From: Bacilli bacterium
GTDB taxonomy: Bacteria > Bacillota_I > Bacilli_A > RF39 > UBA660
Direction: 5' to 3'
Length of the DNA: 64,000 bases
NCBI GenBank assembly: GCA_017441065.1
Contig: JAFSAI010000033.1
Span: 2,581 to 66,580, forward strand
Positions 4,721 to 45,445 of this stretch are shown piece after piece. The notes under the pieces are model-generated. The model was not told where the DNA came from. It saw only the letters and a list, made by a program, of their open reading frames with translations, and did no database searches. The translations under genes and the position numbers were made by a program. Numbering within the stretch: the first letter of the stretch is position 1; every line of letters begins with the position of its first letter.

Positions 4721-6538
4721 TTATTTTTCTTCAAATGCAGCTTCTTCTACATTATCATCTTTTTTAGATGTTTCTGTAGTTGTTTCTGAATTAGAATTTT
4801 CTGGATTTACATTTTGATAAACTTTAGCTGCTAAATCCATTGCTACTTTTGATAGTTCTTCAGTTTTTTCTTTTATTTTATCTATATCACTACCTGCAAG
4901 TAATTCTTTTAATTCTTTAATTAATTCTTCAGCTTTTTCTTTATCTTTAGAATCAACTTTATCTCCTAAATCTTCTAAAGCTTTTTCAGTTTGGAATACC
5001 ATTGAATCAGCATTATTTCTAACTTCTGCTTCATTCTTTTTCTTTTCGTCTGCTTCTTTATTAGCTTCTGCTTCTTTTACCATCTTTTCAATTTCATCAT
5101 CAGAAAGGTTTGTGCTAGATGTAATTGTGATTGATTGTTCTTTTCCAGTACCTAAGTCTTTTGCTTTAACATTAACTATACCATTAGCATCAATATCAAA
5201 TGTTACTTCAATTTGAGGTACACCTCTTTTTGCTGGAGGTAAATTTGTTAATTGGAAGTTACCTAAAGTTTTGTTATCGCTAGCCATTGGTCTTTCACCT
5301 TGTAATACATGAATATCTACTGCTGGTTGATTATCAACTGCTGTACTGAACACTTGACTCTTACTTGTAGGAATTGTTGTATTTCTTGGAATTAATACTG
5401 TCATAACATTACCTAATGTTTCAATACCTAGAGATAATGGAGTAACATCTAATAATACGATATCATCAACTTCACCAGTTAATACTCCACCTTGAATAGC
5501 AGCACCCATAGCAACTACTTCATCTGGGTTAACACCTTTATTTGGTTCTTGTCCTAATTCTTTTTTAACTAATTCTTGAATGTAAGGAATTCTTGTTGAT
5601 CCACCAACTAAAATAACTTTATCAATATCTTTATTTGTAAGTTTAGCATCTTTAAGAGCTTTTCTTACTGGTTCCATAGTTGAATCAAATAAGTCACGAC
5701 ATAAGTCTTCAAATTTAGCTTTTGATAAGCTCATTTCCATATGTAATGGTCCTTCATCACTTTGAGCAATAAATGGTAAACTAATTTGAGCATTAGTCAT
5801 ACCAGATAAATCTTTTTTAGCCTTTTCAGCAGCATCTTTAATTCTTTGCATTGCCATTTTATCTTTAGATAAATCTAAACCATGTTCTTTTTTAAATTCA
5901 CTTACTAAATATTCTGAAACTCTTTCATCAAAGTCATCTCCACCTAAACGATTATTTCCACTTGTAGATTTAACTTCGAATACACCATCACCTAATTCAA
6001 GGATAGATACGTCAAATGTACCTCCACCTAGGTCATAAACTAAAATTGTTTGTAATTTATCTTGTTTATCTAAACCATAAGCAAGCGCAGCTGCTGTTGG
6101 TTCATTAATAATCCTTTCTACTTCAAGTCCAGCAATTTTACCAGCATTCTTTGTTGCTTGTCTTTCAGCATCGTTAAAATATGCTGGAACTGTAATAACT
6201 GCTTTTGTAACTTTTTCTCCTAAATAAGCCTCTGCATCAGCTTTTAATTTAGCTAAAATTTTTGCACTTATTTCTTCTGGAGTATATTTTTTATCGTTAG
6301 CTTCTACTCTTTCACTAGTTCCCATTTTTCTTTTAATAGATGAAATAGTATTTTTTACATTAGTTACCGCTTGTCTTTTCGCAGTTTCTCCAACTAATTC
6401 ATCATCACCTTTGAAAGCTACTACTGAAGGAGTAGTACGATTACCTTCACTATTTGGAATAACTTTTGGTTCTCCACCTTCTAATACTGATACACAACTA
6501 TTTGTTGTACCTAAATCTATACCTATAATTTTTGCCAT
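4721..6538 (-). CDS. dnaK: Chaperone DnaK (Hsp70)
   Basis: Begins [14 protein letters not shown]-like. Carries the DLGGGTFD and [11 protein letters not shown] Hsp70 signatures. Acidic C-terminus. Confidence 0.97.
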
Positions 6539-6552
6539 TTAAATCATCTCCT

Positions 6553-7089
6553 CTATTCATTAACTTTGACCATGGCTGGTCTTATAACTTTATCATTATA
6601 TTTATAACCTTTTAACATTACACAAGTAACTATACCTGATTCTTTACCTTCAACACTTTCAGTCATTACTGCTTCCATTGTTTCTGGATTAAAAGGTTCA
6701 TCTAAACATTTTATTTCTTCAACCCCAACTGATTCTAAATTATTTTTTAATTCATTATAGATTAATTTAAATCCACTTAAGAACTTAGACACTTCATCTT
6801 CAGGATTATCATTATCCATATTTATCGCTCTTTCAAAATTATCAAGAACTCCTAAAGTCTTTTTAATAAAAGATTCTCCTTCATATCTATATATTTTAGA
6901 TATTTCTTCTTCATATCTTCTTTTCATATTTTGCATTTCTGCACTAACTCTTAATAATTTATCATTAAGCACATTTTTTTCTTCTTGTAATTTTTCTATT
7001 TCTTTATTACATTTTTTATCTTTTTTACAAGTTTTTTCTTCTTTTACTTCTTCCTGAAGTTCATCTGTTATCTTTTCTGTTTCTTCCAT
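6553..7089 (-). CDS. grpE: Nucleotide exchange factor GrpE
   Basis: 178 aa with a coiled-coil N-terminal half and a GrpE-like C-terminal beta domain. Sits between hrcA and dnaK. Confidence 0.85.
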   Translation of the reverse strand: MEETEKITDELQEEVKEEKTCKKDKKCNKEIEKLQEEKNVLNDKLLRVSAEMQNMKRRYEEEISKIYRYEGESFIKKTLGVLDNFERAINMDNDNPEDEVSKFLSGFKLIYNELKNNLESVGVEEIKCLDEPFNPETMEAVMTESVEGKESGIVTCVMLKGYKYNDKVIRPAMVKVNE

Positions 7090-8114
7090 TATTTTCCCTC
7101 TATTTTATCTACCATATAGTTAAGAAGTGATACAACTCTTTCATATTCCATTCGTTTAGGGCCAATGATTGCAATTGTTCCTTCTTCTCCACCTGATTTA
7201 TATTTTCTTTTAATAACTGTAACATTATCATCAAAATTAGTTTCCTCACCAATATAAATTTGTAATTCTTCACTACCATCTATACTGCTAACCATTTCTT
7301 TAAATGATTCATCTTCTAATTTTGAGGCTATTCTTTTAATATCTTCCGTATTATCATACTCAGGTTCTTTTAATAAATTAACTCTTCCTGATACATGTAT
7401 ATTTGTATTATGTAATAAGAAATCATTAAATGCATCATAGAAAATGTTATATACAGTTTCATAATTTTTTATATATTTTGCTATAACTGGTTTTATTTCA
7501 AACTCTAGTTTTTCAGCAACTTTATTAATAGGTGTTCCTACTAACATTTTATTAATCATTTCGCTTGTTCTAACTATCTCTGACACATCTGTATCTATTG
7601 GCAACATAAACTGTTTGTTTTCAACTATACCTTTATCAGTACATACTATTGCTACTACTTTATTAGGAGCTAATGTAATAATATTTATTTGTTGTAATAA
7701 ATTATCATTACTATTTTTACCTAGCACTACTGAAGTATAATTTGTTAAATCACTAATAATTTCCATACACTTAGTAACTGCGTCACTAACTTGCAACTCT
7801 GTATTAGAAAATATTGTCTGTAATTTTAACATATCTTCACCAGTTAAATCTTTTGGCTTCATCAAATTCTCAACATAATATCTATAACCTAACTCACTAG
7901 GAATTCGACCACTAGAAATATGATTCTTTTCGATATACCCCATATTTTCTAGAACTGCCATTTCATTTCTAATCGTAGCACTTGAACAGTTTAATTTTTT
8001 ACATAAAGATTTACTTCCTACTGGTTTAACAGTTTTTACATAGTTTTCTACTATTTCTTTTAATAGTTCTTTCTTCCTGTCATCCATGAACACTTTATCA
8101 CCACCATTTAGCAC
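7089..8114 (-). CDS. hrcA: Heat-inducible transcription repressor HrcA. Probable true start is the ATG at 8087 (FMDDRKK), which has SD GGTGGTGA upstream.
   Basis: 341 aa. N-terminal winged-helix, central and C-terminal HrcA domains. First gene of the hrcA-grpE-dnaK operon, with CIRCE upstream. The track ORF begins at a GTG. Confidence 0.85.
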   Translation of the reverse strand: MLNGGDKVFMDDRKKELLKEIVENYVKTVKPVGSKSLCKKLNCSSATIRNEMAVLENMGYIEKNHISSGRIPSELGYRYYVENLMKPKDLTGEDMLKLQTIFSNTELQVSDAVTKCMEIISDLTNYTSVVLGKNSNDNLLQQINIITLAPNKVVAIVCTDKGIVENKQFMLPIDTDVSEIVRTSEMINKMLVGTPINKVAEKLEFEIKPVIAKYIKNYETVYNIFYDAFNDFLLHNTNIHVSGRVNLLKEPEYDNTEDIKRIASKLEDESFKEMVSSIDGSEELQIYIGEETNFDDNVTVIKRKYKSGGEEGTIAIIGPKRMEYERVVSLLNYMVDKIEGK

Positions 8115-8181
8115 TCTTCTTTCTTTAATGCTAACCCTATTATAATATTATGCTTAGCACTTGTCAAGTTATGAGTGCTAA
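8108..8181 (-). promoter_or_regulatory. Two CIRCE (HrcA operator) inverted repeats upstream of hrcA
   Basis: 8154-8181: TTAGCACTTGTCAAGTTATGAGTGCTAA, with arms TTAGCACT/AGTGCTAA. 8108-8134: TTAGCACTC-N9-TAATGCTAA, a weaker second copy overlapping the GTG start of the ORF track. Consensus is TTAGCACTC-N9-GAGTGCTAA. Confidence 0.8.
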
Positions 8182-8208
8182 TTTCACATTTTTTTCATTT
8201 TCATATAA

Positions 8209-8236
8209 CATAAAAAAGACTAGCAATCTAGTCTTA
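8209..8236 (-). terminator. Rho-independent terminator of surface-protein gene B
   Basis: Hairpin AAGACTAG-CAAT-CTAGTCTT followed on the minus strand by T6. Confidence 0.7.
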
Positions 8237-8243
8237 TATTATC

Positions 8244-8303
8244 AAGGAAGAAAGATATGTGTGTTATCTTTCATGTTTATTTTAACGTCTTCATTGACGA
8301 TTA
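8244..8303 (-). repeat. Conserved 3' UTR element, copy 1 (plus strand: ...GGAAGAAAGATATGTGTGTTATCTTTC...TTATTTTAACGTCTTCATTGACGAT)
   Basis: About 60 nt between the stop codon and the terminator. Near-identical copies occur at 20450-20505 and 31727-31790, and a shorter copy at 43618-43644. Contains an 8-bp hairpin GAAAGATA/TATCTTTC with an ACACACA loop (as read on the mRNA strand). Confidence 0.75.
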
Positions 8304-9560
8304 TTAATTTATTAGGAATGGATCTGTTTCTGTTCCTGTTCCACCTGTTATATGTATTGTTGATTCTAGATAGAAGACTGGCTTAACATAAGTTCCTTCA
8401 CGCAACGAACCTTCTTTGTAATAACTAGCAGGTCCTACACCGCCTAAAGTAACTACACCTATAATCCAAGAAGAAAATACTTTACCACTAGTGTAAAGCG
8501 GAGTATTTAATTCAAAATAAACTCCACCATTTACATAGGAACTAAAGTCCATTAATAGTTCGTCTACTCTAGGTGTTGTTAACACCCAACTGCCATCACA
8601 TGAACTAAAACAATTGGCTCCGCTTAAATAATAGTAATCGTGTATATACATTACTCCAACTTTGGCATTTACACTATTGGAAAAAGAATTCTCTAAAGCA
8701 TATATTTCATCTGGAGTAACATTTGCTGAATTACGATTTGAAATTTCACCATATTTCCAAATTGTATTAGAAACTTTATTATACCAAACACTACTTGTGT
8801 TCATATAATCATAATTAGAACTATTTACAAAAAGATTACTATATCCACCGCCGCTTATACCATTTAGCCCTTTAAAAATATCACTATCAGCCCACAAAGC
8901 TTTTTCTTCGGTTTTGTGCCATGCGTACGCAGTATTATTTATAGGTTCCCTTTTGATTAATTTCAATTGTCCACTTGAATTCACACCTAATATTCGATAC
9001 ATATACTTATCTGTATTGTTTGTGCACGTCGACTTATTATTAGTTCCAAAACACACATAGTTATTTACTATATCATTATTGTTACTATTACCATGATATC
9101 TATACATTTCACCTTCCATATTCGTAGTGTTTAAACCTGATGTTGGATTTCTTAGTAAACATTCAGATGCTGTTTCATCTTCATTACACCACTTAGGTAT
9201 ACTAAAATACAAATAACAATAGCTTGTATTTCCTGTATCTACTGTTGCTATATTATTTGTGCTATCATAACTAAGTACTCCATCTAACTTATTTCCATTT
9301 ATATCTATACATCCTGACATAGACTCATTATATGTATATCCACTTGTTGGCCACGTACTAGTTGTATCTTCTTTATATGTTCCGTCTTCTTGTTCTAACA
9401 TTATCGCAAACATATTTGAATTATTTATATTTAAATTTACTTCATCTAAATTTGTATTTTTATTACCATATGATTTATACATCAAAAACAATGTACAGCT
9501 TTCTATTATCACTAACACTAGTATTACTATCACACATATTTTTTTGTTAACAACTTGCAT
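8304..9560 (-). CDS. Surface-anchored protein, family member B. N-term MQVVNKK + TM, C-term ITGGTGTETDPFLIN.
   Basis: ORF track. Its first 120 codons or so are about 93% identical at the DNA level to the ORF at 20506-21645. Variable centre. Conserved blocks YICFGT, YMYRIIG and KIGLMYIHDYYY. Conserved C-terminal motif. Confidence 0.8.
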   Translation of the reverse strand: MQVVNKKICVIVILVLVIIESCTLFLMYKSYGNKNTNLDEVNLNINNSNMFAIMLEQEDGTYKEDTTSTWPTSGYTYNESMSGCIDINGNKLDGVLSYDSTNNIATVDTGNTSYCYLYFSIPKWCNEDETASECLLRNPTSGLNTTNMEGEMYRYHGNSNNNDIVNNYVCFGTNNKSTCTNNTDKYMYRILGVNSSGQLKLIKREPINNTAYAWHKTEEKALWADSDIFKGLNGISGGGYSNLFVNSSNYDYMNTSSVWYNKVSNTIWKYGEISNRNSANVTPDEIYALENSFSNSVNAKVGVMYIHDYYYLSGANCFSSCDGSWVLTTPRVDELLMDFSSYVNGGVYFELNTPLYTSGKVFSSWIIGVVTLGGVGPASYYKEGSLREGTYVKPVFYLESTIHITGGTGTETDPFLIN

Positions 9561-9584
9561 AATCTTTCTTCCTTATCTATTTTA

Positions 9585-9625
9585 TAAGGTAAGTATATAT
9601 TACCCCCCCCGAAGTCAAATTTTTG
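9585..9625 (-). promoter_or_regulatory. Sigma-A-type promoter with a homopolymeric G8 tract (C8 on plus, 9603-9610) inside the -35/-10 spacer. Candidate phase-variation switch.
   Basis: Minus strand reads TTGACT-TCGGGGGGGGTAATA-TATACT, then a 5' UTR with AAGGAAGAAAG SD, then ATG at 9560. Spacer is 15 nt with G8. The same promoter occurs upstream of two paralogues with different tract lengths. Confidence 0.75.
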
Positions 9626-10758: not shown

Positions 10759-11530
10759 CTAATTTAGGAATTAATATTTTATCTCCCATAGTCATATTAT
10801 CAATATTATTATATTCTTGAACTAGATTAAGTGATGCATTATACATTGAACAAATACTTTCAATTGTTTCATTTTCTTTTACTATATGAATGTGATATGT
10901 AACAAACGTATCATCACTATCTTTTATTGTATCCATAATTGTTTTTTCTTCTTCCATTGAAACCCTTTCTTCAAGAATTACTTCTTCATTTATTTTTTCA
11001 GGTTCTTCTTTTTGTACCATTTCCTTCTTTTCTTCAATTTTAACTTCATCGATTAAAGTTACTGGGGCATCTTTTCTTTCTTCTAACTCAACTTCTTCAC
11101 ATACATCTTCTTTATCTTCTTCTACAGATGTTTCTAAAAAAGAATCTATATAAGCAAGTTCACTTTCTAATTCTTCTTCATCAACTCTTTCAAATAACGT
11201 ATCATTATCTTCTTCTACTTCCGCTTTTAATGAATACTCAATATTTACTTTTAATAATTTTCCTGAAACATCATAAGAAAAATCTTCAATATTAAATTCT
11301 AAAGTATCTTTCTTAATATCATCTCTTAATTCAACAGTAAATGGCAAAGTATAATTAAATGGTTCTCTATTAATACTCACTTCATGAACACGATATTCAC
11401 CACTTATATAAAAATTACCAAGAACAACTCCATCATTAACATTAAATTCATGTTCTAAAGACATTTTTGTTATTTCACTAATATTTGTTTTAAATTCAAT
11501 TTCACTTTCAAAAGGTATTTTAATAAACAT
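10751..11530 (-). CDS. spoVID: SpoVID-like spore coat morphogenetic protein (N-terminal SpoVID domain, acidic linker, C-terminal LysM)
   Basis: N-terminal blocks align to B. subtilis SpoVID (ISGEYRV vs LTGEYNI; FNIEDFSYDVSGKLLKVNIEYSL vs FIDAFDYQLTDSRILTIQADL). Glu-rich middle. C-terminal LysM-like ETIESICSMYNASLNLVQEYNNI...GDKILIP. Confidence 0.6.
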   Translation of the reverse strand: MFIKIPFESEIEFKTNISEITKMSLEHEFNVNDGVVLGNFYISGEYRVHEVSINREPFNYTLPFTVELRDDIKKDTLEFNIEDFSYDVSGKLLKVNIEYSLKAEVEEDNDTLFERVDEEELESELAYIDSFLETSVEEDKEDVCEEVELEERKDAPVTLIDEVKIEEKKEMVQKEEPEKINEEVILEERVSMEEEKTIMDTIKDSDDTFVTYHIHIVKENETIESICSMYNASLNLVQEYNNIDNMTMGDKILIPKLDE

Positions 11531-20419: not shown

Positions 20420-20442
20420 AGAAAAACTCGCTTTTGCGAGTT
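20420..20442 (-). terminator. Rho-independent terminator of surface-protein gene C
   Basis: Hairpin ACTCGC-TTTT-GCGAGT followed on the minus strand by TTTTTCTTATTT. Confidence 0.7.
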
Positions 20443-20449
20443 AATACTT

Positions 20450-20505
20450 TAGGAAGAAAGATATGTGTGTATCTTTCAAATTTATTTTAACGTCTTCATT
20501 GACGA
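20450..20505 (-). repeat. Conserved 3' UTR element, copy 2
   Basis: TTAGGAAGAAAGATATGTGTGTATCTTTC...TTATTTTAACGTCTTCATTGACGAT. Differs from copy 1 by a 1-nt deletion. Confidence 0.75.
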
Positions 20506-21645
20506 TTAATTTATAATATATGGATCAGTTGATGTTCCGGTTCCACCTGTTATTTTTACATCAGATTTCAAATAGAATACTGGACGAACCAAACGAGCGC
20601 TGTCCAAATAATTAAGTGTGGGAATTCCATCACTCGATGCCAAAGTCCATCCGCGAAAACTACTAGAACCACCTAAACGACTCATTAACCACTCTAGAAC
20701 ATTTGTAAGTGGAACATTATTGGATAAATGTATCCAAGCAGTTTTTGCATTACTAGGATTTTCTGGCGATCCTCCGCTAGCATAGGCGTAGTAATAATCG
20801 TGTATATACATCAAACCTATTTTTGCACTTATGGTATTCGCCCAACTATCTTCAATTGCATATATTGTTGGGCCATCATAACCACCATTACTTGTTGCAT
20901 CCCCATACTTCCACGTTGTTGTTGCTATTTTACTTTCCCATCCTGTCGGAACATATGTATTATTTAATAAGTAATCATTTCCGTTTAATGCTATATATAT
21001 TAAACTATTTGGCCATATTACATCTGTTGTATCGTCACTCCACCATGCTACTGATGTATTTAAGATTTCTTTCTTTATTAGTTTCATTTGCCCCTCTTCA
21101 GCAATTCCTATTATTCTATACATATATGTAGCTGTATTATTTGTACAATCCAACTTATTGTTTGTTCCAAAACATATATGATTATCTACATTGTCAGTTC
21201 CTTGATATCTATACATCCCTGCTTCTATTGTAGTGTTTAATCCACTAGATGGATTCTGCAAAAGGTATTCACTAGCATTAGGCCTACTAAAATACAAATA
21301 GCAATAACTAGTATTTCCTGTATCTACTGTAGCTATATTATTGGTACTATCATAGCTAAGTACACCATCTAACTTATTTCCATTTATATCTATACACCCT
21401 GACATAGAATCATTATATGTATATCCACTTGTTGGCCATGTACTCGTTGTATCTTCTTTATATGTTCCGTCTTCTTGCTCTAACATTATTGCAAACATAT
21501 TTGTATTATTTATATTTAGATTTACTTCATCTAATGTATTATTCTTATTACCATATGATTTGTACATTAGAAACAATGTACAACTTTCTATTATCACTAA
21601 CACTAATATTACTATCACACACATTTTTTTGTTAACAACTTGCAT
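20506..21645 (-). CDS. Surface-anchored protein, family member C. C-term ITGGTGTSTDPYIIN.
   Basis: ORF track. N-terminal 120 aa nearly identical to member B. Divergent centre. Conserved C-terminus. Confidence 0.8.
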   Translation of the reverse strand: MQVVNKKMCVIVILVLVIIESCTLFLMYKSYGNKNNTLDEVNLNINNTNMFAIMLEQEDGTYKEDTTSTWPTSGYTYNDSMSGCIDINGNKLDGVLSYDSTNNIATVDTGNTSYCYLYFSRPNASEYLLQNPSSGLNTTIEAGMYRYQGTDNVDNHICFGTNNKLDCTNNTATYMYRIIGIAEEGQMKLIKKEILNTSVAWWSDDTTDVIWPNSLIYIALNGNDYLLNNTYVPTGWESKIATTTWKYGDATSNGGYDGPTIYAIEDSWANTISAKIGLMYIHDYYYAYASGGSPENPSNAKTAWIHLSNNVPLTNVLEWLMSRLGGSSSFRGWTLASSDGIPTLNYLDSARLVRPVFYLKSDVKITGGTGTSTDPYIIN

Positions 21646-21659
21646 ATTCTTTCTTCCTT

Positions 21660-21712
21660 ATCTATTTTATAAGGTAAGTATATATTACCCCCCCCCGAAG
21701 TCAAATTTTTTG
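21660..21712 (-). promoter_or_regulatory. Paralogous promoter with a G9 tract (C9 on plus, 21688-21696) in the spacer
   Basis: TTGACT (plus 21699-21704 as AGTCAA), a 16-nt spacer containing G9, then TATACT (plus 21677-21682). Flanks identical to the 9585-9625 promoter. Confidence 0.75.
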
Positions 21713-23853: not shown

Positions 23854-23949
23854 ATGAATAAAAAAACTAGAAAAATTCTAGTATGGGTAATGCTATTCCT
23901 TATGGTTGCATCTTTCGTAGCAAGTATTGCAATATATGCACTAGCTTAA
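23854..23949 (+). CDS. Small hydrophobic peptide, 31 aa (MNKKTRKILVWVMLFLMVASFVASIAIYALA)
   Basis: SD AAGGTGGG 8 nt upstream of the ATG. Single TM. Its 3' end overlaps the pilD stop convergently by 9 nt. Confidence 0.4.
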   Translation: MNKKTRKILVWVMLFLMVASFVASIAIYALA

Positions 23950-24711
23950 TGAAAAGAAAACCAATAAATTAGTAAACTTTTCAATGAAAACAAACATTAT
24001 AATCATTGATGATATTAAAAATGGACCAAAAGGAAGTTCATTTTTTTTATTGAAATAAAGTGTTGCCATAGCATATGGTAATGCTAAAAATGCTGCAAAC
24101 ACAAGTGATATTAAACTAAGTCTAAATCCTATTCCAGGATATCCTAAAGTTAATCCGATTAAGAAACATAATTTAATATCTCCTCCACCAAGAGATTCTC
24201 TTTTATATATTTTATCGCCTATTATTTTTATCAAATACATAACTAAAAATAAAGCTATACCATAAAGAACAGAATAAATTGTATTTGTTAATCCTACTTC
24301 AAAATATCTTATTATAATTATTAAAATACTTCCTATTACTAATGGCGAATCTAATATAATCATATATTTAAAATCACTTACAAATATTATTAATGCCACA
24401 GATATTATTATTAAGTAAATTCCTAATTTTAAAGAAATATCAAAGTACAAATAACCTACTAAGAAAAGAATTCCTGTAGCAAGTTCCATTATTAAATGTT
24501 CTTTACTAATTTTTTTACCACAGTTACGACACTTACCTAATTGAATTATATAAGATACCAAAGGTATCAATTCATACCATTTTAATTCTTTTTTACAAGA
24601 ATCACATCTACTTCTTCCTGTAATTACATTTTCTTTTAAAGGTAATCTTGTTCCTATTACTAAATAGAAGGAGCCTAAAATGGCTCCTATAATAAACACA
24701 CAAACTCCCAT
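23941..24711 (-). CDS. pilD: Prepilin peptidase (A24 family; PilD/ComC)
   Basis: N-terminal tetra-Cys (CDSCKK...CRNCGKK) zinc motif. Polytopic. GGGDIKL and catalytic Asp-containing motifs typical of A24 peptidases. Confidence 0.85.
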   Translation of the reverse strand: MGVCVFIIGAILGSFYLVIGTRLPLKENVITGRSRCDSCKKELKWYELIPLVSYIIQLGKCRNCGKKISKEHLIMELATGILFLVGYLYFDISLKLGIYLIIISVALIIFVSDFKYMIILDSPLVIGSILIIIIRYFEVGLTNTIYSVLYGIALFLVMYLIKIIGDKIYKRESLGGGDIKLCFLIGLTLGYPGIGFRLSLISLVFAAFLALPYAMATLYFNKKNELPFGPFLISSMIIMFVFIEKFTNLLVFFSLS

Positions 24712-24724
24712 TTTTTTAATCCCC

Positions 24725-26299
24725 CTACATTACTTGTTCATACATTCCGAACATTGGAACAATAACAGCAATTATTATACCACCTACTACTATAGCTAAG
24801 AAACTAATAAGTATCGGTTCAATAAATGATTTTAAATTATTTACTACATTACGATGTAATCCTTGATAGTATTCACTAACCTTTTGCATCATATTATCAA
24901 GTTCACCAGTTGATTCACCAGTTACAATCATGAAATAGGCAACATCAGGTACTGCCCAGTGATCTTTGAATGCTTCGCTGATTTTTTCACCTTTAACTAT
25001 ATTATTAATTGTTCTATATAATATAGATTTATAAATTTCATTATTTGTAATTTTACTTAAAATATCAATACTTTCTGTAATAAATACGTTATTTCTTAAA
25101 AGAGATGCAAATGTTTTTGTAAATATGGCTAATTCATTATAAATGATAATGTCTTTTACAACAGGTATTTTCATCATCATTGTTTGCATACTTCTTCTAA
25201 ATGCTTTTACATTTTTATAAGCAACAATTAATACTATTACTGCTATTACTATTAGTAATAAGATTGTAAAGATATTGTTTTGTAAGAAGTGACTTAAATT
25301 AATTATGAATGCCGTAATACCATTTAATTCAATATTATTCTTTTCATATATTTCAACGAATTTTGGAATTATAAATACTAGGATAAATGCTACAACTGCA
25401 AAGGCAAAAATACTAATTATCAATGGATATGTCATTGCACTTTTCATTTGTTTCTTAGTTTCATCAACTTCAGTATAATAGTTAGCCATATCTTCTAGTG
25501 TTTCAATTAAAGTACCACTAGCTTCTGCAGCTTTAATCATATTAATAAGAAGCGGTGGGAACATATTTCCTTGTTTTTCTAAAGCAGATGAGAAAGACGC
25601 TCCTAATGTAAGTTCATAAGACATTGATTGGAATGCTCTGGCTTTACTTTTCTTACTAGCCATTTGTTTTGACAATATTTTAACTGCATCGTTTAAAGTG
25701 ATTCCAGCTTTTAAATATGTAGATAATTGAGTTAACCAGAATATTAATTCTTTAGTAGACATTTTTGGACTACCAAATGAAGATTCTTTAAATAAGAAAT
25801 TAATCATTGGGCTAGTTTTAATACTATATACTGTATAACCTTCATTTACTAAGAATGAATTTATATCTAATTTAGATAAACCATTCATAGTACCAGTAAT
25901 TATTTTTCCTTGTTTATCTCTAACTTTAAAATAATAAACATTAACTTCTTTACTACGAGTCGCTCCTGTAGTTTGTAAATCTTGTAATAATGCTTGATAT
26001 TCTTGTTCTAATTTTGCTAATGTTTTAGCACTATAATTATAAACTTTTTCTTTTTTCTTTTTATTATCGTAACCATCATCTTCATGAGGTCCTAAAGCTT
26101 CTTTAGTTCTTTTATATGCTTTATCTAATTTCCAACTAGTACTATTATATAAATATACAAACAAATCATAAGTACAAGCTTTTAATCCAATAAAAGCATA
26201 AGAAAAAATTGAAAATATTACTAAACAAATATTTTTTAAAAACTCTAAAAATAAAACATACCACACTTTTTTTTCGTTAGGTGTTGCAACATTATCCAT
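24725..26299 (-). CDS. pilC: Type II secretion / type IV pilus platform protein (GspF/PilC/ComGB family) with an extra N-terminal extension
   Basis: Two GspF-type repeats and 3 TM segments (about 400 aa C-terminal), preceded by an about 130-aa N-terminal region containing a TM. Adjacent to pilD. Confidence 0.8.
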   Translation of the reverse strand: MDNVATPNEKKVWYVLFLEFLKNICLVIFSIFSYAFIGLKACTYDLFVYLYNSTSWKLDKAYKRTKEALGPHEDDGYDNKKKKEKVYNYSAKTLAKLEQEYQALLQDLQTTGATRSKEVNVYYFKVRDKQGKIITGTMNGLSKLDINSFLVNEGYTVYSIKTSPMINFLFKESSFGSPKMSTKELIFWLTQLSTYLKAGITLNDAVKILSKQMASKKSKARAFQSMSYELTLGASFSSALEKQGNMFPPLLINMIKAAEASGTLIETLEDMANYYTEVDETKKQMKSAMTYPLIISIFAFAVVAFILVFIIPKFVEIYEKNNIELNGITAFIINLSHFLQNNIFTILLLIVIAVIVLIVAYKNVKAFRRSMQTMMMKIPVVKDIIIYNELAIFTKTFASLLRNNVFITESIDILSKITNNEIYKSILYRTINNIVKGEKISEAFKDHWAVPDVAYFMIVTGESTGELDNMMQKVSEYYQGLHRNVVNNLKSFIEPILISFLAIVVGGIIIAVIVPMFGMYEQVM

Positions 26300-31640: not shown

Positions 31641-31726
31641 AAAATCCCCTCTTTTGAGTGATTATTATACCAAATTTTTAAAAATAATCAACAAAAAAGC
31701 TAGTTACATAAAACTAGCATCTATTT

Positions 31727-31790
31727 CTTAGGAAGAAAGATATGTGTGTTATCTTTCTGGTTTATTTTAACGTCTTCATTGACGATTATT
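31727..31790 (-). repeat. Conserved 3' UTR element, copy 3. Not attached to a family gene: it sits in the 3' UTR of the unrelated secreted-protein gene 31864-33267.
   Basis: TTAGGAAGAAAGATATGTGTGTTATCTTTC...TTATTTTAACGTCTTCATTGACGATTATT. Followed at 31698-31717 by a terminator hairpin GCTAGT-TACATAAA-ACTAGC + T6 (as read on the minus strand). Confidence 0.7.
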
Positions 31791-31863
31791 ATTTATAGGA
31801 ATATTTCTTTTGTTACTGCTTTTTTTTCATCAATTTGGATCATAATAATTAATCAAGGAAAGC

Positions 31864-33267
31864 TTAATAGCTTTCCTTCTTTATTTTTCTTATTAATTTT
31901 TTTATTAATACTAATGAAATTATAAATTCACATACATAAATATCAATATTATCAAACGTTCTGGGATTTTCAATATTATCTATAATAGTATCATTTATTT
32001 CTGGTAAAACATTACTTATTTCATCTTTACTAGTCTCTTGTAACTCTTCCATTACTTCTTCCTTATTTATATCATCTGGAACTACTACTTCTTTAATTTC
32101 GCTTTTAACAGTAATTTCTTCATCAATCGAATCTTTAACAATTATCTCTTGATAATAATCAGTATCTTTATTTTCTATATAATAAGTACCATAAGGTAAT
32201 GTTATGACATCAGTTTGAATATTTACTTTTTCATATATTTCGTTGTTGCTTTTCAAATGAATATTGTATTCATAATTATCTAAAACATTAATACTAATAT
32301 TTTTAGATATTACATATTTATCAACATTAACATCTAAACTATTACCAGAAATTTTGACAGAAAATTCCTCTATATTATTTATGCCTTCCACATTAGAAAT
32401 ATCTTTTACTTTATAAGTCCATTCTGGAACCAAATAAATATTATCTAGATCATTAGTAGTAAATAATTCTTTTTTATTATAAATAATTTGATACGTACTA
32501 TTAAGTGATGCATCACCAGTACGTCCATTAACTCCAATTAAATTTTCAATAATATTTAACTTACCACCAAAAACATGATAATCAAAAGAATAATTAATAT
32601 CTTCAGGACCTTTTAAACTTTGCCAATATATATTATTGCCTACTTTATATGTTCTAATTTCATTATCATAATCCTTACTAAAGTTAAGAGTATATTTTCC
32701 AACTTTTTTTGGATATAAACTAATTTTATTACCTACAGTTTTAATATCTATTTCATCTAATTTAGGATTATCTAAAATAATAGCTCCTTCATCATATTCA
32801 AATTTACTAGTTGTCCATATAAAATCATTATATACCTTATCAAATATATTTGACTTTAAATAATGATTATTTATTTTTTCCAATAATACATTATATTGAT
32901 TTAACATATCAGAAGATATATTTATAAATTCAATATCAAAATTACCTATTAAATTCCATACTATAAGTTGAGTTATAACATAATTTTCTATAGTGGGATT
33001 TTCTAAATAACCATAATAAACTATCGTCGAAAATTTATTTATATCTTTGTTTTCTTCAACATATTCTTCTAATGCATCATTTATATCATAATTATTAATA
33101 TCTATATTAAATAACATATTTCCATTATAACTAATTTCTTTAATATTTATTATTTCATTATTTATACTAACACTATATACAGTATCTTTTATAAAAATAT
33201 TAGCATTTACTATATTTAAATTAACAAAAAAACTAACTAATATAATAATTAATTTTATCACAAACAA
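31864..33267 (-). CDS. Secreted/anchored protein of unknown function (signal peptide, C-terminal TM + basic tail)
   Basis: N-terminal signal-like segment MFVIKLIIILVSFFVNLNIVNA. Asn/Tyr-rich body. C-terminal hydrophobic segment plus KKLIRKIKKESY. Confidence 0.5.
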   Translation of the reverse strand: MFVIKLIIILVSFFVNLNIVNANIFIKDTVYSVSINNEIINIKEISYNGNMLFNIDINNYDINDALEEYVEENKDINKFSTIVYYGYLENPTIENYVITQLIVWNLIGNFDIEFINISSDMLNQYNVLLEKINNHYLKSNIFDKVYNDFIWTTSKFEYDEGAIILDNPKLDEIDIKTVGNKISLYPKKVGKYTLNFSKDYDNEIRTYKVGNNIYWQSLKGPEDINYSFDYHVFGGKLNIIENLIGVNGRTGDASLNSTYQIIYNKKELFTTNDLDNIYLVPEWTYKVKDISNVEGINNIEEFSVKISGNSLDVNVDKYVISKNISINVLDNYEYNIHLKSNNEIYEKVNIQTDVITLPYGTYYIENKDTDYYQEIIVKDSIDEEITVKSEIKEVVVPDDINKEEVMEELQETSKDEISNVLPEINDTIIDNIENPRTFDNIDIYVCEFIISLVLIKKLIRKIKKESY

Positions 33268-35489: not shown

Positions 35490-36788
35490 GTGTTTAGAGA
35501 ATTTGATTACGATAATAAACCTATTGTAGATATTGTTAACGAAATGATTATAGATGCTGTTAAAAATGGTGGATCCGATATTCACTTCGATCCTACTGAA
35601 GATGAATTAATGGTTCGTATCAGAGTTGATGGTTCACTTTTAGAATATGCTAAAGTACCAGCAACTGTAAAAAAGAATTTAATTACTCGTATAAAAATCA
35701 TTTCAGGAATGAATATTACTGAAACAAGACTTCCACAAGATGGTGCTATCAAAGGTTTAATTGAAAATATGGATGTTGACCTTCGTGTATCTAGCTTACC
35801 TATTGTTGATGGTGAAAAAGTCGTTATCCGTATTTTGGATTATCGTATGAGTTTAAATGGACTTGAATCTATTGGACTTACAAAAGATAATTTTACAAAA
35901 ATAAATGAACTTATAAAAAAACCAAATGGTATTATAATGATTACTGGTGCTACTGGTTCTGGTAAATCTACTACTGTATACTCTATGTTACAAGTACTTA
36001 ATACTACTGATAGAAATATTATTACAGTTGAAGATCCAGTAGAAATGAAAATTGCTGGTATAAACCAAGTACAAGTTATGAGTGAAATCGGTCTTACATT
36101 CGGAAGTTCTTTAAGAAGTATCTTAAGACAAGACCCCGATATCATAATGATTGGGGAAATTCGTGACGACGAAACTGCTCGTATTGCTGTTAGAGCATCA
36201 ATTACTGGACACTTAGTATTATCTACTATCCACACTAATAACTCTCTTAATACAATTGAAAGACTTTTAGATATGGATGTAGAAAGATATTTACTTGGTA
36301 GTGCTTTATCTGGTATTATTTCTCAAAGACTTGTTAAGAAATTATGTCCAAAGTGTCGAAGTGCTAGACCTACTAATAATTATGAAAAGAATCTTTTTAA
36401 AAAAGTATTAAATATGGATGTTCAACAAATTTATACTCCAGTTGGTTGTCCAGAATGTATAAATGGTTATAAAGGTAGAATTGCTGTTCATGAAGTATTG
36501 GAAATTACTCAAGAAATTAGAGATGCTATCGTAGGTAACTTAAGAAAAGAAGATTTAAGAAGACTTGTTTATGGTAAAGATGGAAGTACCCTTCTTAAAG
36601 ATGGATTAATTAAAGTTATGGAAGGTTTTACTTCAATGGATGAAATCGTAAGAGTTATTGATGTAAATGATGACTTTGGAGAAGATGATCAAGAACTAAA
36701 AGATGCAATTATTGGAAAAACTAGTAAACAAACTAATAATCAAAATGTTGCTAATCCATTTATTAAACCAAATATTGAAACATTATAA
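35490..36788 (+). CDS. pilB: Type II secretion / type IV pilus assembly ATPase (GspE/PilB/ComGA family), short form without the N-terminal domains
   Basis: Walker A GATGSGKST. Asp box. Walker B DIIMIGEIRD. His box LVLSTIHTN. Tetracysteine CPKC...CPEC. GTG start with SD GGTGA. Confidence 0.9.
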   Translation: MFREFDYDNKPIVDIVNEMIIDAVKNGGSDIHFDPTEDELMVRIRVDGSLLEYAKVPATVKKNLITRIKIISGMNITETRLPQDGAIKGLIENMDVDLRVSSLPIVDGEKVVIRILDYRMSLNGLESIGLTKDNFTKINELIKKPNGIIMITGATGSGKSTTVYSMLQVLNTTDRNIITVEDPVEMKIAGINQVQVMSEIGLTFGSSLRSILRQDPDIIMIGEIRDDETARIAVRASITGHLVLSTIHTNNSLNTIERLLDMDVERYLLGSALSGIISQRLVKKLCPKCRSARPTNNYEKNLFKKVLNMDVQQIYTPVGCPECINGYKGRIAVHEVLEITQEIRDAIVGNLRKEDLRRLVYGKDGSTLLKDGLIKVMEGFTSMDEIVRVIDVNDDFGEDDQELKDAIIGKTSKQTNNQNVANPFIKPNIETL

Positions 36789-36856: not shown

Positions 36857-38146
36857 TTAACCAATTAAATAGGGTTCTGTTTGAGTACCTTTTCCTTCAG
36901 AAATTTTAATACTACTATTTAAATAGAAAGCTGGACGTATAGAAAGGGCATGCATTGTATACTGACCTGTAGAACTTATTTCTCCTGTTCCACTTATATA
37001 CCACGCATATTGAAGATTTCTCATTGTACCAGTTCCATATCTAGACATCGTCCACTCATAACCTACTGCCCAATCATCAGGTGGTGTATCATCATTATTA
37101 CTTAAGTGAATCCATCCCGTTTTTAATATACCATAATTTGAATTCGATATATAATTTAATGCTCTCTCTCCTAATGATAACGCATAATCACTAACATACA
37201 TTAATCCTATTTTTGAAGTAACATTTTTCCATTCCCCTATAGTGCTAGTTTTTGTATTTCTATTCATTTCATGTAAATATATATTTTGTGCAGCAACACC
37301 AGAGTAGTCTAGACCACTACTTTCATTTGTTAATGTATTTATTGCTACAAAATTCCAGTCAATTATTTTACTTAACCATAAGTCTTTTTGCATATATGAA
37401 TATGTTGTATTATTTAGGAAATAATTTCCGTTTATCCCATTGTATAATTCACTTGCTTCCCAATTTGTATCAACCCTATAAGCACTATGCCATGCATAAG
37501 CTGTATTTAATGCTTCTTTTTTGATTAATTTTAAATGGTATCCACCAACCGGATCCTGAAAAATTCCAATAATACGATACATATATAAGTCTGTATTATC
37601 TATACAAGTATCTTTATCTGTAGTTCCAAAACATATATAATTATCTGGATAAGTTCCAATATAACGATATCCATCATCTTCTAATGAACTATCCCAAATA
37701 TCACTTATAAATTTTAAATTACTACTTTCTTCTTTTATACATTCATCAATATTATTATATGTTTTACACAAATCATATAGATTAGTGGCTGGCATATCAA
37801 AATATAAGTAACAATATGAAGTGTATTCAGAATTAACTTCAGCTATATTTGTTTTAGGATCATACTTTAATGCTCCTGGTATCATTTCTCCATTAATATC
37901 AACACATCCAGAAATACTACTATTGTATTTGTAACCTTCTCCAGGCCATATGGCATTATCCGCTTCTTTATATGATCCATCATCTTGCTCTATCATTATG
38001 GCAAATATGCTATCTTGAATATTATCTAATTTAAATTTTTCCCATTGAACGTTTTCGTTACCGTATATAAAAGTCACAAAAAACAAAACTAGTAATAATA
38101 CTATAGCAACGCTTACTAAACCAATTGTTGTTTTATCTGCTTTCAT
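36857..38146 (-). CDS. Surface-anchored protein, family member D. C-term ISEGKGTQTEPYLIG. No poly-G promoter.
   Basis: N-terminal TM. Shares the blocks FAIMIEQDDGSYKE, YTSYCYLYFD, YICFGT, LYMYRIIG and KIGLMYVSDY, and the C-terminal motif, with members B and C. Confidence 0.75.
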   Translation of the reverse strand: MKADKTTIGLVSVAIVLLLVLFFVTFIYGNENVQWEKFKLDNIQDSIFAIMIEQDDGSYKEADNAIWPGEGYKYNSSISGCVDINGEMIPGALKYDPKTNIAEVNSEYTSYCYLYFDMPATNLYDLCKTYNNIDECIKEESSNLKFISDIWDSSLEDDGYRYIGTYPDNYICFGTTDKDTCIDNTDLYMYRIIGIFQDPVGGYHLKLIKKEALNTAYAWHSAYRVDTNWEASELYNGINGNYFLNNTTYSYMQKDLWLSKIIDWNFVAINTLTNESSGLDYSGVAAQNIYLHEMNRNTKTSTIGEWKNVTSKIGLMYVSDYALSLGERALNYISNSNYGILKTGWIHLSNNDDTPPDDWAVGYEWTMSRYGTGTMRNLQYAWYISGTGEISSTGQYTMHALSIRPAFYLNSSIKISEGKGTQTEPYLIG

Positions 38147-39294: not shown

Positions 39295-40908
39295 TTAGTT
39301 AGTTGTATATCCAAGTTCTTCTAATACACAATTTGTATATGCTGTAGGTCCACCTAATACATAAATTTGACAAGCATCTACTAAATCATCTACTTCATCT
39401 GAAGTAATTGTTGTATCACCAACTTTACCTAAAATTTCATCTAATTTTTTATCCATTTCAGTTAATTTAGTATCAATATTTCCAGATACTTCTATTAATT
39501 TATCAAATACTGCTTTATTTTCAGATTTAATTAATTCATTAGTTGTTCCGAATTTTTCATTAATTGATTTTTCTAAATCAGATATTTTTGTTTCAACAGA
39601 ACTTACTGCTGCAGCTAAATCAGTATCAATATCTTTTACTGCTATTGAAAGTTCTGATACATCTTCGCTTAATGCATCAATCTTTCCATTTGTAATTGTT
39701 AATTCATCTTTAACTGTTTTTGCAATTGATTCTTTAACTTCATTTAAACTTCTATTCAATATTGCTAATTCGTCTTCTATTTTATCTCCTAAGCTTGTTT
39801 CAAGTTCACCTAAAGTTTTATTTAAACTAGTTTCTAAATTAGTTATTGCAGTATTTATTTCTGCAATGTTTGAATTAATTGTAGCAACTTCTGTAGTTAA
39901 TTTTGTAATCAAATTTGTTTGAACTGCATCAATAACTCCTGCTAAATTTCCTTGTACATTTAATAGAGCTGTTAAAACCATTCCAATATTTGTATTAATA
40001 GTTTCTACATCTTTTGTTATTTTAGCAGCTAAATTACCTTCAACAGTTGTCATAACTGCACTTAAGTTTCCTTGTACATTTAATAAATCAGCACGTAAAT
40101 TATCTATGTTTGTATTAATAGATTTTACATCTTCAGTAATTTTATTAGCTAAATTACTTTCTACTGCTATCATTACACCGCTTAAATTTGTTTGTACATT
40201 TAATAAATCTGTACGTAAAGCATCAATATTTGTATTAATTAATCCAGCTTCAGTTGAAATTTTTCCAGCCAAATTACTTTCTACATTTTGTAATGAATCA
40301 AATAAGTTTGTTTGTACATTTACTAATACAGTACTTAGATTTGCTTGAACATTACTTAAATTTTCATTTAATCTATCTTCTGTATTTTGAATTTCTTCAA
40401 TAACTTCATCTGTTTCACTATCCATTTTATTAGCTAAATTTTCTTGTACATTTTCAAGTGAGTCAAATAAATTTGTTTGTACATTAACTAAAGAATTATA
40501 TAAATTTTCTTGAGTATTAACTAAATTTGTATTTATATTATCATTTGCAGCATCTACTGCATTAATTATTTCTATTGTTTTTTCATTAACACTATTTGTT
40601 AAATTTTCGTAATTTTTATTTGTTGTTTCTTCAAAATTATTAATATTATTATTTAATTTATTATAATTTTTATTAGTATTATTTTCTAAATAAGTAATAC
40701 TTTCTGATACATTATTAAATTTATTATTAAGTTCATCTTTTACATTAGTAATTTTATCACTATTATTTGAAACTGCTGTATCAATATCATTTAATGCTCC
40801 AGCGCTTTTTCCAAATTCTCCAAATAATAGAACAATTCCGATGATTAATACTAAAACTAATATTATATCCATAACTATTTTTCTAGCATTTATTTCTTTC
40901 TTTGCCAT
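39295..40908 (-). CDS. Membrane-anchored coiled-coil protein with tandem 38-40 aa repeats (LLNVQxNLSxVMxxVExNLAxKITxDVxxINTNI)
   Basis: N-terminal TM. At least four imperfect repeats, which are also visible as 117-120 bp tandem DNA repeats. Cys-containing C-terminal tail. Confidence 0.6.
   Translation of the reverse strand: MAKKEINARKIVMDIILVLVLIIGIVLLFGEFGKSAGALNDIDTAVSNNSDKITNVKDELNNKFNNVSESITYLENNTNKNYNKLNNNINNFEETTNKNYENLTNSVNEKTIEIINAVDAANDNINTNLVNTQENLYNSLVNVQTNLFDSLENVQENLANKMDSETDEVIEEIQNTEDRLNENLSNVQANLSTVLVNVQTNLFDSLQNVESNLAGKISTEAGLINTNIDALRTDLLNVQTNLSGVMIAVESNLANKITEDVKSINTNIDNLRADLLNVQGNLSAVMTTVEGNLAAKITKDVETINTNIGMVLTALLNVQGNLAGVIDAVQTNLITKLTTEVATINSNIAEINTAITNLETSLNKTLGELETSLGDKIEDELAILNRSLNEVKESIAKTVKDELTITNGKIDALSEDVSELSIAVKDIDTDLAAAVSSVETKISDLEKSINEKFGTTNELIKSENKAVFDKLIEVSGNIDTKLTEMDKKLDEILGKVGDTTITSDEVDDLVDACQIYVLGGPTAYTNCVLEELGYTTN
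39880..40340 (-). repeat. Imperfect tandem repeats of about 117-120 bp inside the CDS 39295-40908
   Basis: Repeated unit ...TTGTACATTTAATAAATCxGxACGTAAAxxATCxATxTTTGTATTAATxG... recurs 3-4 times. Confidence 0.7.
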
Positions 40909-43582: not shown

Positions 43583-43606
43583 AAAGGAAAGTATTTCTAC
43601 TTTCCG
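43580..43606. terminator. Bidirectional terminator between the convergent DUF368 gene and surface-protein gene E
   Basis: GGAAAGTA-TTTC-TACTTTCC flanked by A5 and T runs. Confidence 0.7.
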
Positions 43607-43617
43607 AAGGGTTAAGT

Positions 43618-43644
43618 CTATTTTAACGTCTTCGTTGACGATTG
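43618..43644 (-). repeat. Conserved 3' UTR element, copy 4 (core only: TATTTTAACGTCTTCGTTGACGAT)
   Basis: Lies immediately after the stop of gene E. Lacks the GAAAGATA hairpin half. Confidence 0.65.
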
Positions 43645-45378: not shown

Positions 45379-45394
45379 ATTATCTTACCCTTCT

Positions 45395-45445
45395 TTTATT
45401 TATAAGGTAAGTATATATTACCCCCCCCGAAGTCAAATTTTTTCA
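45395..45445 (-). promoter_or_regulatory. Paralogous promoter with a G8 tract (C8 on plus, 45421-45428) in the spacer
   Basis: TTGACT (plus 45431-45436), 15-nt spacer, TATACT (plus 45410-45415). Flanks identical to the other two copies. Confidence 0.75.

Follow-up and report, generated by a model that had tools for sequence, protein, structure and literature searches.

The stretch of DNA analysed here (the window) comprises 64,000 nucleotides of contig JAFSAI010000033.1 (assembly GCA_017441065.1, positions 2,581 to 66,580), has 26% G+C and originates from the metagenome-assembled genome (MAG) of an uncultured 'Bacilli bacterium'. Two of its surface-protein genes (genes 1 and 2) end in a near-identical block of about 60 nt located between the stop codon and the intrinsic terminator, a third (gene 4) has the core of the block only, and a further near-identical copy (copy 3, the 'orphan') has lost its cognate gene. 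The block is real: the coordinates given in the original prediction are right to within 1-3 nt, and folding predicts both hairpins that had been claimed, one of CGUC/GACG and one of 8 bp (GAAAGAUA/UAUCUUUC). Its description as an element common to the family genes holds for genes 1, 2 and 4, but not for a fifth, more distant paralogue (36857-38146), which lacks the element and has a terminator directly 3' of its stop codon. The plus-strand 25-mer TTATTTTAACGTCTTCATTGACGAT is found exactly at 8277-8301, 20482-20506 and 31762-31786 and with two mismatches at 43618-43642: four matches in the window, with 0.00 expected from 100 shuffles. Exact copies of the hairpin part (AGGAAGAAAGATATGTGTGTTATCTTTC) stand at 8245-8272 and 31730-31757; it has a 1-nt deletion in the loop at 20451-20477 and is missing from copy 4 (43618), where the terminator follows directly after the core. 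Intrinsic terminators were recognised by a scan behind all four copies (8235-8216, 20442-20425, 31718-31699 and 43605-43586). The 8-bp hairpin itself was not called as an intrinsic terminator: it has only two G-C pairs, is followed by UUCCUU, and the canonical terminator lies 8-15 nt further on.

The block had been regarded as one unit; it is conserved, but it consists of two modules with different distributions, which had been missed. Module 1 is a motif of 23 nt (CGUCAAYGAAGACGUUAAAAUAR). Searching for further copies had been suggested as a check, and a scan for the exact 21-mer CGTCAAYGAAGACGTTAAAAT, with one genome per species, returned 77 stretches in 34 MAGs, nearly all from uncultured gut Bacilli (rabbit, goat, human). 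Copies of the untranslated region (UTR) type are present in 18 species-level MAGs, 1-80 nt past stop codons, and copies of the insertion sequence (IS) type in 16 other MAGs; the two sets of genomes are disjoint. The genes upstream of UTR-type copies encode almost exclusively exported proteins, with several unrelated C-terminal families, and every copy, when read as RNA, is co-oriented with its upstream gene. Immediately either side of the 23-mer, conservation is at background level. The conservation at the nucleotide level in spite of divergent coding bodies, noted before for the window, is also seen in related genomes: all five paralogues that were fetched on protein identity alone carry the exact motif. 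A search permitting four mismatches over 0.6 Mb found only three variant copies. Across 70 distinct copies, the bases at Y7 and R23 always go together (T...A in 24, C...G in 46); a base pair between the two was rejected, as no helix sets them opposite each other, and linkage by descent is possible.

The motif occurs in several layouts. In class A, the stop codon is followed by the motif ending in UAA, a 6-nt spacer and a hairpin with a 3' arm that runs into CUUCC. In class B, which includes window copy 4, the motif ends in UAG and is followed by an A-rich spacer of 2-9 nt, ACUUAACCC and a variable terminator richer in G+C. A third type has the motif, then AGCAAACAAUCC, then the terminator. In four operons of diversity-generating retroelements (DGRs; loci L025, L028, L052 and L094, L and P numbers being our handles for loci and proteins), the motif overlaps the stop codon of the last open reading frame (ORF95) and has a conserved structured RNA and a terminator behind it. 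There are also intergenic copies with no terminator before the downstream gene, one between dnaX and the next gene (L029) and one in L064. In Rfam 15 the only match of the window is a tRNA, and E-value scans of both element types produced chance-level hits only. Phage origin was rejected, with zero motif matches in viral contigs, as was a mobile miniature repeat similar to repetitive extragenic palindromes or miniature inverted-repeat transposable elements, since only 23 nt are shared and both flanks are at background conservation. The idea that copies at contig ends belong to rRNA leaders was dropped too: there is no rRNA at these positions and the copies are ends of an IS110-family element. 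We regard the 23-mer as an undescribed sequence tag that is common to DGR operons and the IS110-family element.

Module 2 is gene-specific and, as had likewise been missed, is complementary in the window to the ribosome-binding site (RBS) of the gene that carries it. In the mRNA, the class A hairpin has AUAUCUUUCUUCCUU as its 3' arm and tail, against AAGGAAGAAAGAU(U)AUG in the initiation region of its gene, and the 5' arm (GAAAGAUA) repeats the RBS. Complementarity to the own RBS extends over 13 nt without mismatch in gene 1, over 11 nt in gene 2, over 7(+3) nt in gene 4 and over 10-12 nt in homologues; in gene 4, CUU of the linker also matches the RBS beyond ACCCUUC, after a 1-nt bulge. When one bulge is permitted, the match takes in the AUG as well (CAU-AUCUUUCUUCCUU versus CAUAAUCUUUCUUCCUU; shuffle p 0.000-0.007 for the window copies). 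Cofolding of the two ends of the gene 1 mRNA gives -37.6 kcal/mol versus -25.9 kcal/mol for separate folding, and genes 1, 2 and 4 gain 11.7, 5.1 and 8.8 kcal/mol, respectively. When the 5' window was extended to -150, all additional matches were low-complexity A/U ones, and pairing of the 23-mer itself with the 5' region was not significant.

Other types of module 2 have different sequences and complement their own RBS too, always at -9 to -14 from the start codon: GGGUUAAGU/ACUUAACCC in L014, L065, L086 and L092, GAAGGGU/ACCCUUC in window gene 4 and L063, AAGGAUUGU/ACAAUCCUU in L068 and AGAAAGAG/CUCUUUCU in L050, where the 5' arm has changed too. In 33% of 43 motif-bearing genes, versus 2% of 312 other genes of the same loci, RBS and 3' segment show Watson-Crick complementarity over at least 9 nt; at a threshold of at least 8 nt, the Fisher p of this group test is ~1e-6. 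In the four DGR operons, the sequence behind the motif, AAAUUCUAUCUA(U/G), is complementary over 12-14 nt to a leader motif ~2.1 kb upstream (in L094, for example, 11382-11470 versus 9238-9250; likewise in L028, L052 and L025), and one terminal pair changes from A-U to C-G. The hairpin is kept in at least five stem versions (GAAAGAUA/UAUCUUUC, GAAAGAUG/CAUCUUUC, GAAAGAUAU/GUAUCUUUC, AAAGAGUG/CACUCUUU and GAGUAUGU/ACAUACUU) and always starts 13 nt past the palindrome. The covariation that had been suggested as a check is thus found across copies, with compensatory changes that preserve the 8-bp hairpin. DNA inversion of the gene between its RBS and the inverted copy was considered and rejected, as all fetched loci are in normal orientation; the predicted inversion junction had zero matches in metagenome_contigs, but so had a class A control pattern, and the search has no power, the organisms being evidently absent from this collection.

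The block is under selection and more than a duplicated 3' end. Since it contains the RBS of its own gene in inverted form, its most likely role is to control the translation or stability of the mRNA of this gene. Our tentative proposal, which may well turn out to be wrong, treats the 60-nt block as a cis-encoded anti-RBS RNA unit that phase-variable, DGR-related surface-protein genes carry between stop codon and terminator; it is best read as acting as a 3' UTR and/or as a small RNA that would share the terminator of the gene. Among the roles offered in the original prediction, those at the RNA level (3' UTR element or 3' UTR-derived small RNA) are accordingly the best supported, while a recombination anchor remains a rival. 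The 23-mer would mark the 5' edge of a short, terminator-ended unit and define or control this unit. The anti-RBS strand would pair with an initiation region, either that of its own mRNA or that of sister mRNAs of the family with the same RBS, and would block ribosome loading and/or alter RNase access, as in the 5'/3'-UTR interactions of icaR and hbs; the outcome could be repression or protection, in cis or in trans. The local hairpin, with its RBS-mimicking 5' arm, would keep the anti-RBS masked until it is opened. If the 23-mer is a promoter, the hairpin would start exactly at +1, and a small RNA sharing the terminator of the gene would be produced.

Two readings of the 23-mer can be distinguished, and we slightly favour the one at the DNA level. 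TAAAAT would then be a -10 box, and the palindrome CGTC-N6-GACG an operator within the spacer. A promoter scan flags copies 1 and 4 (TTAACA-17-TAAAAT, 10/12, and TTAATA-17-TAAAAT), in 8/8 variants the predicted +1 coincides with the first base of the hairpin, and a promoter would explain why some copies stand ahead of genes without an intervening terminator (L029 and L064). In the alternative, RNA-level reading, the weak 4-bp hairpin and the A-rich tail may serve as a handle or processing site that is read by a protein or an RNase; this is in line with the co-orientation of each copy with the upstream gene.

Several observations weigh against the anti-RBS proposal. The invariance of positions 1-21 of the motif is partly by construction, since the scan used the exact 21-mer; the conservation of positions 22-23, outside the search pattern, is independent support. 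Many of the copies are homologous, and only ~4-5 independent events (the module types) therefore stand behind the complementarity statistics; moreover, the 9-nt matches of class B are individually non-significant in wider search windows. ACUUAACCC is also kept behind FGE-like genes with a non-complementary RBS, which implies a further constraint on this linker. In the IS-bearing lineage and next to active DGRs, the 3' hairpins of family genes are different, GC-rich ones that carry no anti-RBS. For the promoter form, no enrichment of a -35 box at 16-18 nt was found in 63 + 26 copies, and the extended -10 is only partial; for the RNA form, the 4-bp stem is weak and has no covariation, because the motif never varies.

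Table 1. Coordinates of the 60-nt block, its parts and the associated features in the window
Feature	Position	Strand	Remarks
Gene 1	8304-9560	minus	family gene ending in copy 1
23-mer, copy 1	8277-8299	minus	CGUCAAUGAAGACGUUAAAAUAA in mRNA sense; 4 nt past the double stop TAATAA of gene 8304-9560
Internal parts of copy 1	8286-8299; 8279-8284	minus	CGUC/GACG palindrome; TAAAAT
Hairpin and tail, copy 1	8244-8272	minus	family-specific module
5' arm GAAAGAUA, copy 1	8265-8272	minus	putative RBS mimic; loop at 8258-8264
3' arm UAUCUUUC and tail UUCCUU, copy 1	8250-8257; 8244-8249	minus	putative anti-RBS
Terminator common to gene 1 and element	8206-8235	minus	stem 8235-8216, then U-tract
RBS region of gene 1, AAGGAAGAAAGAU	9562-9574	minus	-14 to -2 from AUG; perfect 13-nt complement of 8244-8256
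Gene 2	20506-21645	minus	family gene ending in copy 2
23-mer, copy 2	20482-20504	minus	1 nt past the stop of gene 20506-21645
Hairpin and putative anti-RBS tail, copy 2	20451-20477	minus	11-nt perfect complement to own RBS at 21647-21659
Terminator of gene 2 and element	20425-20442	minus	
23-mer, copy 3 ('orphan')	31762-31784	minus	deletion scar
Hairpin and putative anti-RBS tail, copy 3	31730-31757	minus	same sequence as copy 1; cognate gene gone
Terminator of lost family gene	31699-31718	minus	same terminator in syntenic L006
Remnant of 186-aa gene (first ~57 nt)	31787-31845	minus	fused directly to the 23-mer; gene intact in L006
Gene 4	43645-45378	minus	family gene ending in copy 4
23-mer, copy 4	43618-43640	minus	C...G variant CGUCAACGAAGACGUUAAAAUAG; 4 nt past the stop of gene 43645-45378
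Class B linker ACUUAACCCUUC	43606-43617	minus	ACCCUUC complements own RBS GAAGGGU (45384-45393 region)
Terminator of gene 4	43586-43605	minus	8-bp stem, GAAA loop
Poly-G tracts	9603-9610 (G8), 21688-21696 (G9), 45421-45428 (G8)	minus	between -35 TTGACT and -10 box

The orphan copy at 31727-31790 had been taken as evidence that the element can be linked to another exported-protein gene, but this link does not hold. Two loci, L006 and L007, are syntenic with the window between 30.9 and 41 kb. L006 has a 186-aa gene and a 407-aa family gene between a thioester-domain-like gene and the next gene, and the 407-aa gene ends in the same element and terminator as the window orphan. At the corresponding position of the window, the first ~57 nt of the 186-aa gene are joined straight to TCGTCAATG, with the junction at a short similarity (TTCC.A.AAAT.AAT), and gene 31864-33267 has its own terminator at 31878-31855. 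Judged from this synteny, the orphan copy is the deletion scar of a family gene and not the 3' UTR of gene 31864-33267; given that this neighbour has its own terminator, the orphan is uninformative on any association with it.

Genes 1, 2 and 4 belong to a family with over 2000 homologues that matches no Pfam domain and whose members all have a membrane anchor at the N-terminus. The three close paralogues share a 5' module that consists of a -35 box (TTGACT), a poly-G tract, a -10 box, the leader, the RBS AAGGAAGAAAGA and ~120 nearly identical codons. The poly-G tracts of the three genes are the only G/C runs of at least 7 in the 64 kb, and their length at the same locus varies among samples, from G8 to G10, which looks like phase variation by a change in promoter spacing. 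The leader of gene 1 (9575-9600; the same in genes 2 and 4) is predicted to fold CUUACCUUAU against AUAAGGAAG into a local hairpin directed against the Shine-Dalgarno (SD) sequence (-5.9 kcal/mol); this hairpin would compete with the 3' anti-RBS, so that the RBS has competing partners.

Surface proteins of the DUF285/BspA type (L096 2390-3560; P0103, P0107, P0110) have the promoter and RBS of the family, are 92% identical to it in their first ~120 residues and differ in an unrelated C-terminal domain. The DUF285 gene of L096 has the poly-G promoter, RBS and N-terminus of the family, an unrelated C-terminus and, right behind its stop codon, the same 3' module. As both end modules are kept in spite of the different C-terminus, the 3' module goes with the 5' module and not with the C-terminal coding sequence, which suggests that gene bodies are exchanged in a modular way between constant ends. 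In MAG CALVZO (L032 1013-2160; L066 6220-7295), frameshifts split family genes into two to three ORFs; these may be pseudogenes, homopolymer assembly errors or coding-region phase variation. Silent 3' gene cassettes in this MAG were considered and rejected, as the sequences are full-length genes with frameshifts.

Some further features were noted around the family genes. Genes of a type IV pilus or competence-like system are interleaved with them (35490-36788 on the plus strand, 24725-26299 and 23941-24711 on the minus strand) and correspond, by synteny with L006, to a T2SSE ATPase, a T2SSF platform protein and an A24 prepilin peptidase. The N-termini of the family have a conserved Glu within the hydrophobic segment, and the homologue P0116 matches the N_methyl prepilin motif. 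A 537-aa gene (39295-40908) contains four tandem repeats of 120 nt (39866-40345; 63-100% identity to the reference copy). Just downstream of the gene 1 terminator, at 8154-8181, lies an inverted repeat (TTAGCACTT-N10-GAGTGCTAA) similar to CIRCE (controlling inverted repeat of chaperone expression), upstream of an hrcA-grpE-dnaK operon (hrcA 7089-8114, minus strand).

The relation of the family to DGRs is seen in L028 (2636-6880), where a family gene with a variable repeat (VR) of 121 nt is accompanied by a template repeat (TR), with mismatches only at TR adenines, an Avd-like gene and an RVT_1 reverse transcriptase. The same cassette, with two TRs, is present in L094/L095 (6200-11480), from relatives of the window organism, and also in L052 and L025. 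In its general form it consists of the VR target gene, one or two TRs, a gene of 128/129 aa, the Avd-like gene, the RVT_1 reverse transcriptase with the motif IGNxxSQ and the 95-aa ORF. RPVFYL, the motif at the VR end, is retained by the window genes, which have no adenine-pattern match to the TRs of L028, L094 and L095.

The IS-type copies belong to an IS110-family element (L020 ~1285-2957; L040 ~5050-6725; L047) with a 444-aa DEDD transposase (domains DEDD_Tnp_IS110 and Transposase_20) and sub-terminal inverted repeats of 18 bp. The motif, in antisense orientation to the transposase, is found ~45 nt in from one end. The element sits exactly between the SD sequence and the ATG of host genes, such as gyrB after recF; the left flanks of 28/28 insertions are SD-like and not conserved. 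One end begins with AAGG-UUG-AAA-AUA-AAA, a mini-ORF, and the other provides a new RBS, an ATG and three codons in frame with the host ATG. The order within the element is motif, small hairpin, GUUCUUUGAAA, antisense IS body and IS-supplied RBS-ATG fused in frame to the host ATG. GUUCUUUGAAA resembles what we take to be the boxA antiterminator of rrn operons. The DNA-level reading, which we slightly favour, would give this layout a logic, with the motif as promoter. No anti-RBS against the IS-borne start signals was found in the IS copy, and the resemblances of the guide-RNA segments to target and donor are loose only (for example UUAUUUUAAC versus the IS end UUAUUUUCAAC). IS110 transposases are absent from the window, and the position typical of an IS110/IS1111 guide RNA applies only to IS copies in other genomes. 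In an IS-bearing genome, family genes end in a different GC-rich hairpin. The sequences of alternative 3' hairpins are CUCCGACGGCGGCAGUCCCCGCCACGGAGG and AUCGCCCAGGGUGGC.UUUGGCGCCCAGGCGAU (L040 1440-1500 and 6780-6830; L028 4240-4300; L094 7910-7960).

A bolder extension of the anti-RBS proposal, and a rather unlikely one in our view, would cover all these contexts with a grammar of 'handle plus guide'. A single unknown protein would read the 23-mer, and a reprogrammable segment of 9-14 nt would pair with the 5' leader or RBS of its own unit, thereby closing or silencing the mRNA; phase-variable surface genes and DGR operons would use this grammar, and the IS110-family element, inserting between SD and ATG and rebuilding the start signals, would have copied it.

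The block could also be a generic, lineage-wide gene-end signal for transcription, processing or insulation (an RNase site, a termination helper or a promoter for what lies downstream), with the AU-rich hairpin as an accessory, leaky terminator and the RBS complementarity as a functionless relic of an old inverted duplication. We consider this unlikely, though it accommodates much of the distribution: the motif lies behind unrelated genes, including dnaX, ORF95 of the DGRs and the IS mini-ORF; in L003 and L090 the hairpin followed by UUCCUUUUU is the sole terminator-like structure before the next gene; and there are several motif-bearing genes with no RBS complementarity, as well as the alternative 3' hairpins of other lineages, which have no anti-RBS. 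A relic is hard to reconcile with at least four module types that each complement their own 5' end at the same position, and with L050, where RBS, 5' arm and 3' arm covary three ways; in the window copies, the canonical terminator behind the hairpin leaves no need for a second, weaker one. A DNA function, as cassette boundary or recombination anchor, appears improbable to us. The 5' module and the 3' block would be homology arms for swapping gene bodies by gene conversion or uptake of foreign DNA, and the 23-mer could be the site of an IS- or DGR-linked recombinase. The pil loci of Neisseria, which have a conserved downstream repeat, offer a parallel. The same two ends do flank unrelated C-terminal domains (L096 versus the family), two strains differ in target gene and 3' module at a DGR-adjacent locus (L094 versus L095), the motif is part of the end of the IS110-family element, and the window encodes the type IV pilus or competence-like machinery. 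However, a homology arm need not complement the RBS nor preserve a hairpin by compensatory changes, the flanks of the 23-mer are not conserved, which reduces the usable homology to 23-60 bp, and the window yielded no recombinase. In the scar, the deletion junction coincides exactly with the 5' edge of the 23-mer, but it has its own microhomology and requires no site-specific event; contigs frequently break at the motif, but these breaks belong to the multi-copy IS and not to the UTR copies.

It is highly improbable, and for class A largely refuted, that the element is a hairpin or cruciform needed downstream of the VR for target recognition by a DGR. The family does consist of DGR targets (in L028, with all VR/TR mismatches at TR adenines and with Avd-like and reverse transcriptase genes), the motif also ends DGR operons, and the terminator of copy 4 has an 8-bp stem with a GAAA loop, compared with the GRNA loops of DGR target hairpins (PMC3240598). 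But the available TRs do not match the window genes by the adenine pattern; in class A, the stem is rich in A and U, the loop has 6-7 nt and the hairpin lies ~100 nt past the VR-equivalent end; and the true targets next to DGRs, in L028 and L094, lack the motif and have a GC-rich hairpin of another kind. That the element encodes a small protein on the opposite strand is almost certainly wrong: copies 1-3 have a near-perfect RBS and ATG on the plus strand (AAGGAAGAAAGAT-ATG, followed by an ORF of 16-18 codons), but frames and peptides differ between the copies (MCVIFHVYFNVFIDDY versus MCVSFKFILTSSLTINL), with indels that shift the frame, class B and L050 have no such ORF, and the inverted RBS of the family gene itself accounts for the RBS-like sequence. 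An antisense small ORF or type I toxin was rejected, as the reading frame is not conserved across copies.

On the anti-RBS proposal, the element would add a post-transcriptional layer to surface variation, above the poly-G promoter switches and the mutagenesis by the retroelement, and the 23-mer would be a simple sequence tag for locating such units. That the IS110-family element has the tag as well suggests that host genes and mobile DNA have exchanged regulatory modules. The 'handle plus guide' extension, if true, would amount to a natural, modular and cis-programmed RNA control with a dedicated reader in uncultured gut Bacilli.

Small RNAs derived from 3' UTRs, such as DapZ and MicL, have their own promoter in the gene end, share the terminator of the gene and pair by a seed with initiation regions. 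The element described here is similar in that a short RNA would be nested at the 3' end of an mRNA and end at the terminator of the gene. DapZ and MicL, however, target other genes, whereas here the target would be the host gene or its own family, and the putative promoter has no -35 box and is an invariant block of 23 nt. ISPpu9, of the IS110 family, carries the small-RNA module ssr9 beyond its transposase gene and ssr9 is also found solo in the chromosome (PMC12288879); a non-coding module in an IS110-family element plus solo copies is likewise what we see, but here IS and solo copies are in disjoint genomes, share 23 nt only, and the module is antisense to the transposase. The target hairpins of DGRs have a GC-rich stem of 7-10 bp and a 4-nt GRNA loop and lie 4-34 bp from the VR (PMC3240598): they too are structures downstream of a gene for a variable protein, with stems that vary while the fold is kept, but position, stem composition and loop of class A do not fit.

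The closest parallels are 3' UTRs that fold back on their own RBS, which are known from few single genes, such as icaR and hbs. In icaR of Staphylococcus aureus, a 3' UTR segment complements the SD region of the same mRNA; this is proposed to repress translation and to lead to RNase-dependent decay, either in cis or from one molecule to another (PMC3868564). There is no sequence homology: icaR uses UCCCCUG in a long 3' UTR, while the elements described here have AUCUUUCUUCCUU or ACUUAACCC. The anti-RBS is here 10-13 nt long, would be pre-masked by an RBS-mimicking arm and is attached to the invariant 23-mer, and it recurs, with sequences that differ, throughout a multigene family and in DGR operons. 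In the hbs mRNA of Bacillus subtilis, also a Firmicute, a 14-bp pairing between 5' and 3' UTR, similar in length, protects the mRNA (PMC5737220), illustrating that long-range pairing of this kind can protect instead of repress; like hbs, the DGR operons would pair with the leader and not with the SD. Unlike the element described here, hbs is a single housekeeping gene with neither a shared handle nor an RBS mimic, and its effect is established experimentally, while ours is predicted from sequence. The same architecture seems to have been reused with different pairing sequences, under one 23-mer tag, across a phase-variable, DGR-diversified family and DGR operons, and the block is probably best filed as a new form of 3'-UTR/RBS pairing control, possibly delivered as a small RNA nested at the 3' end.

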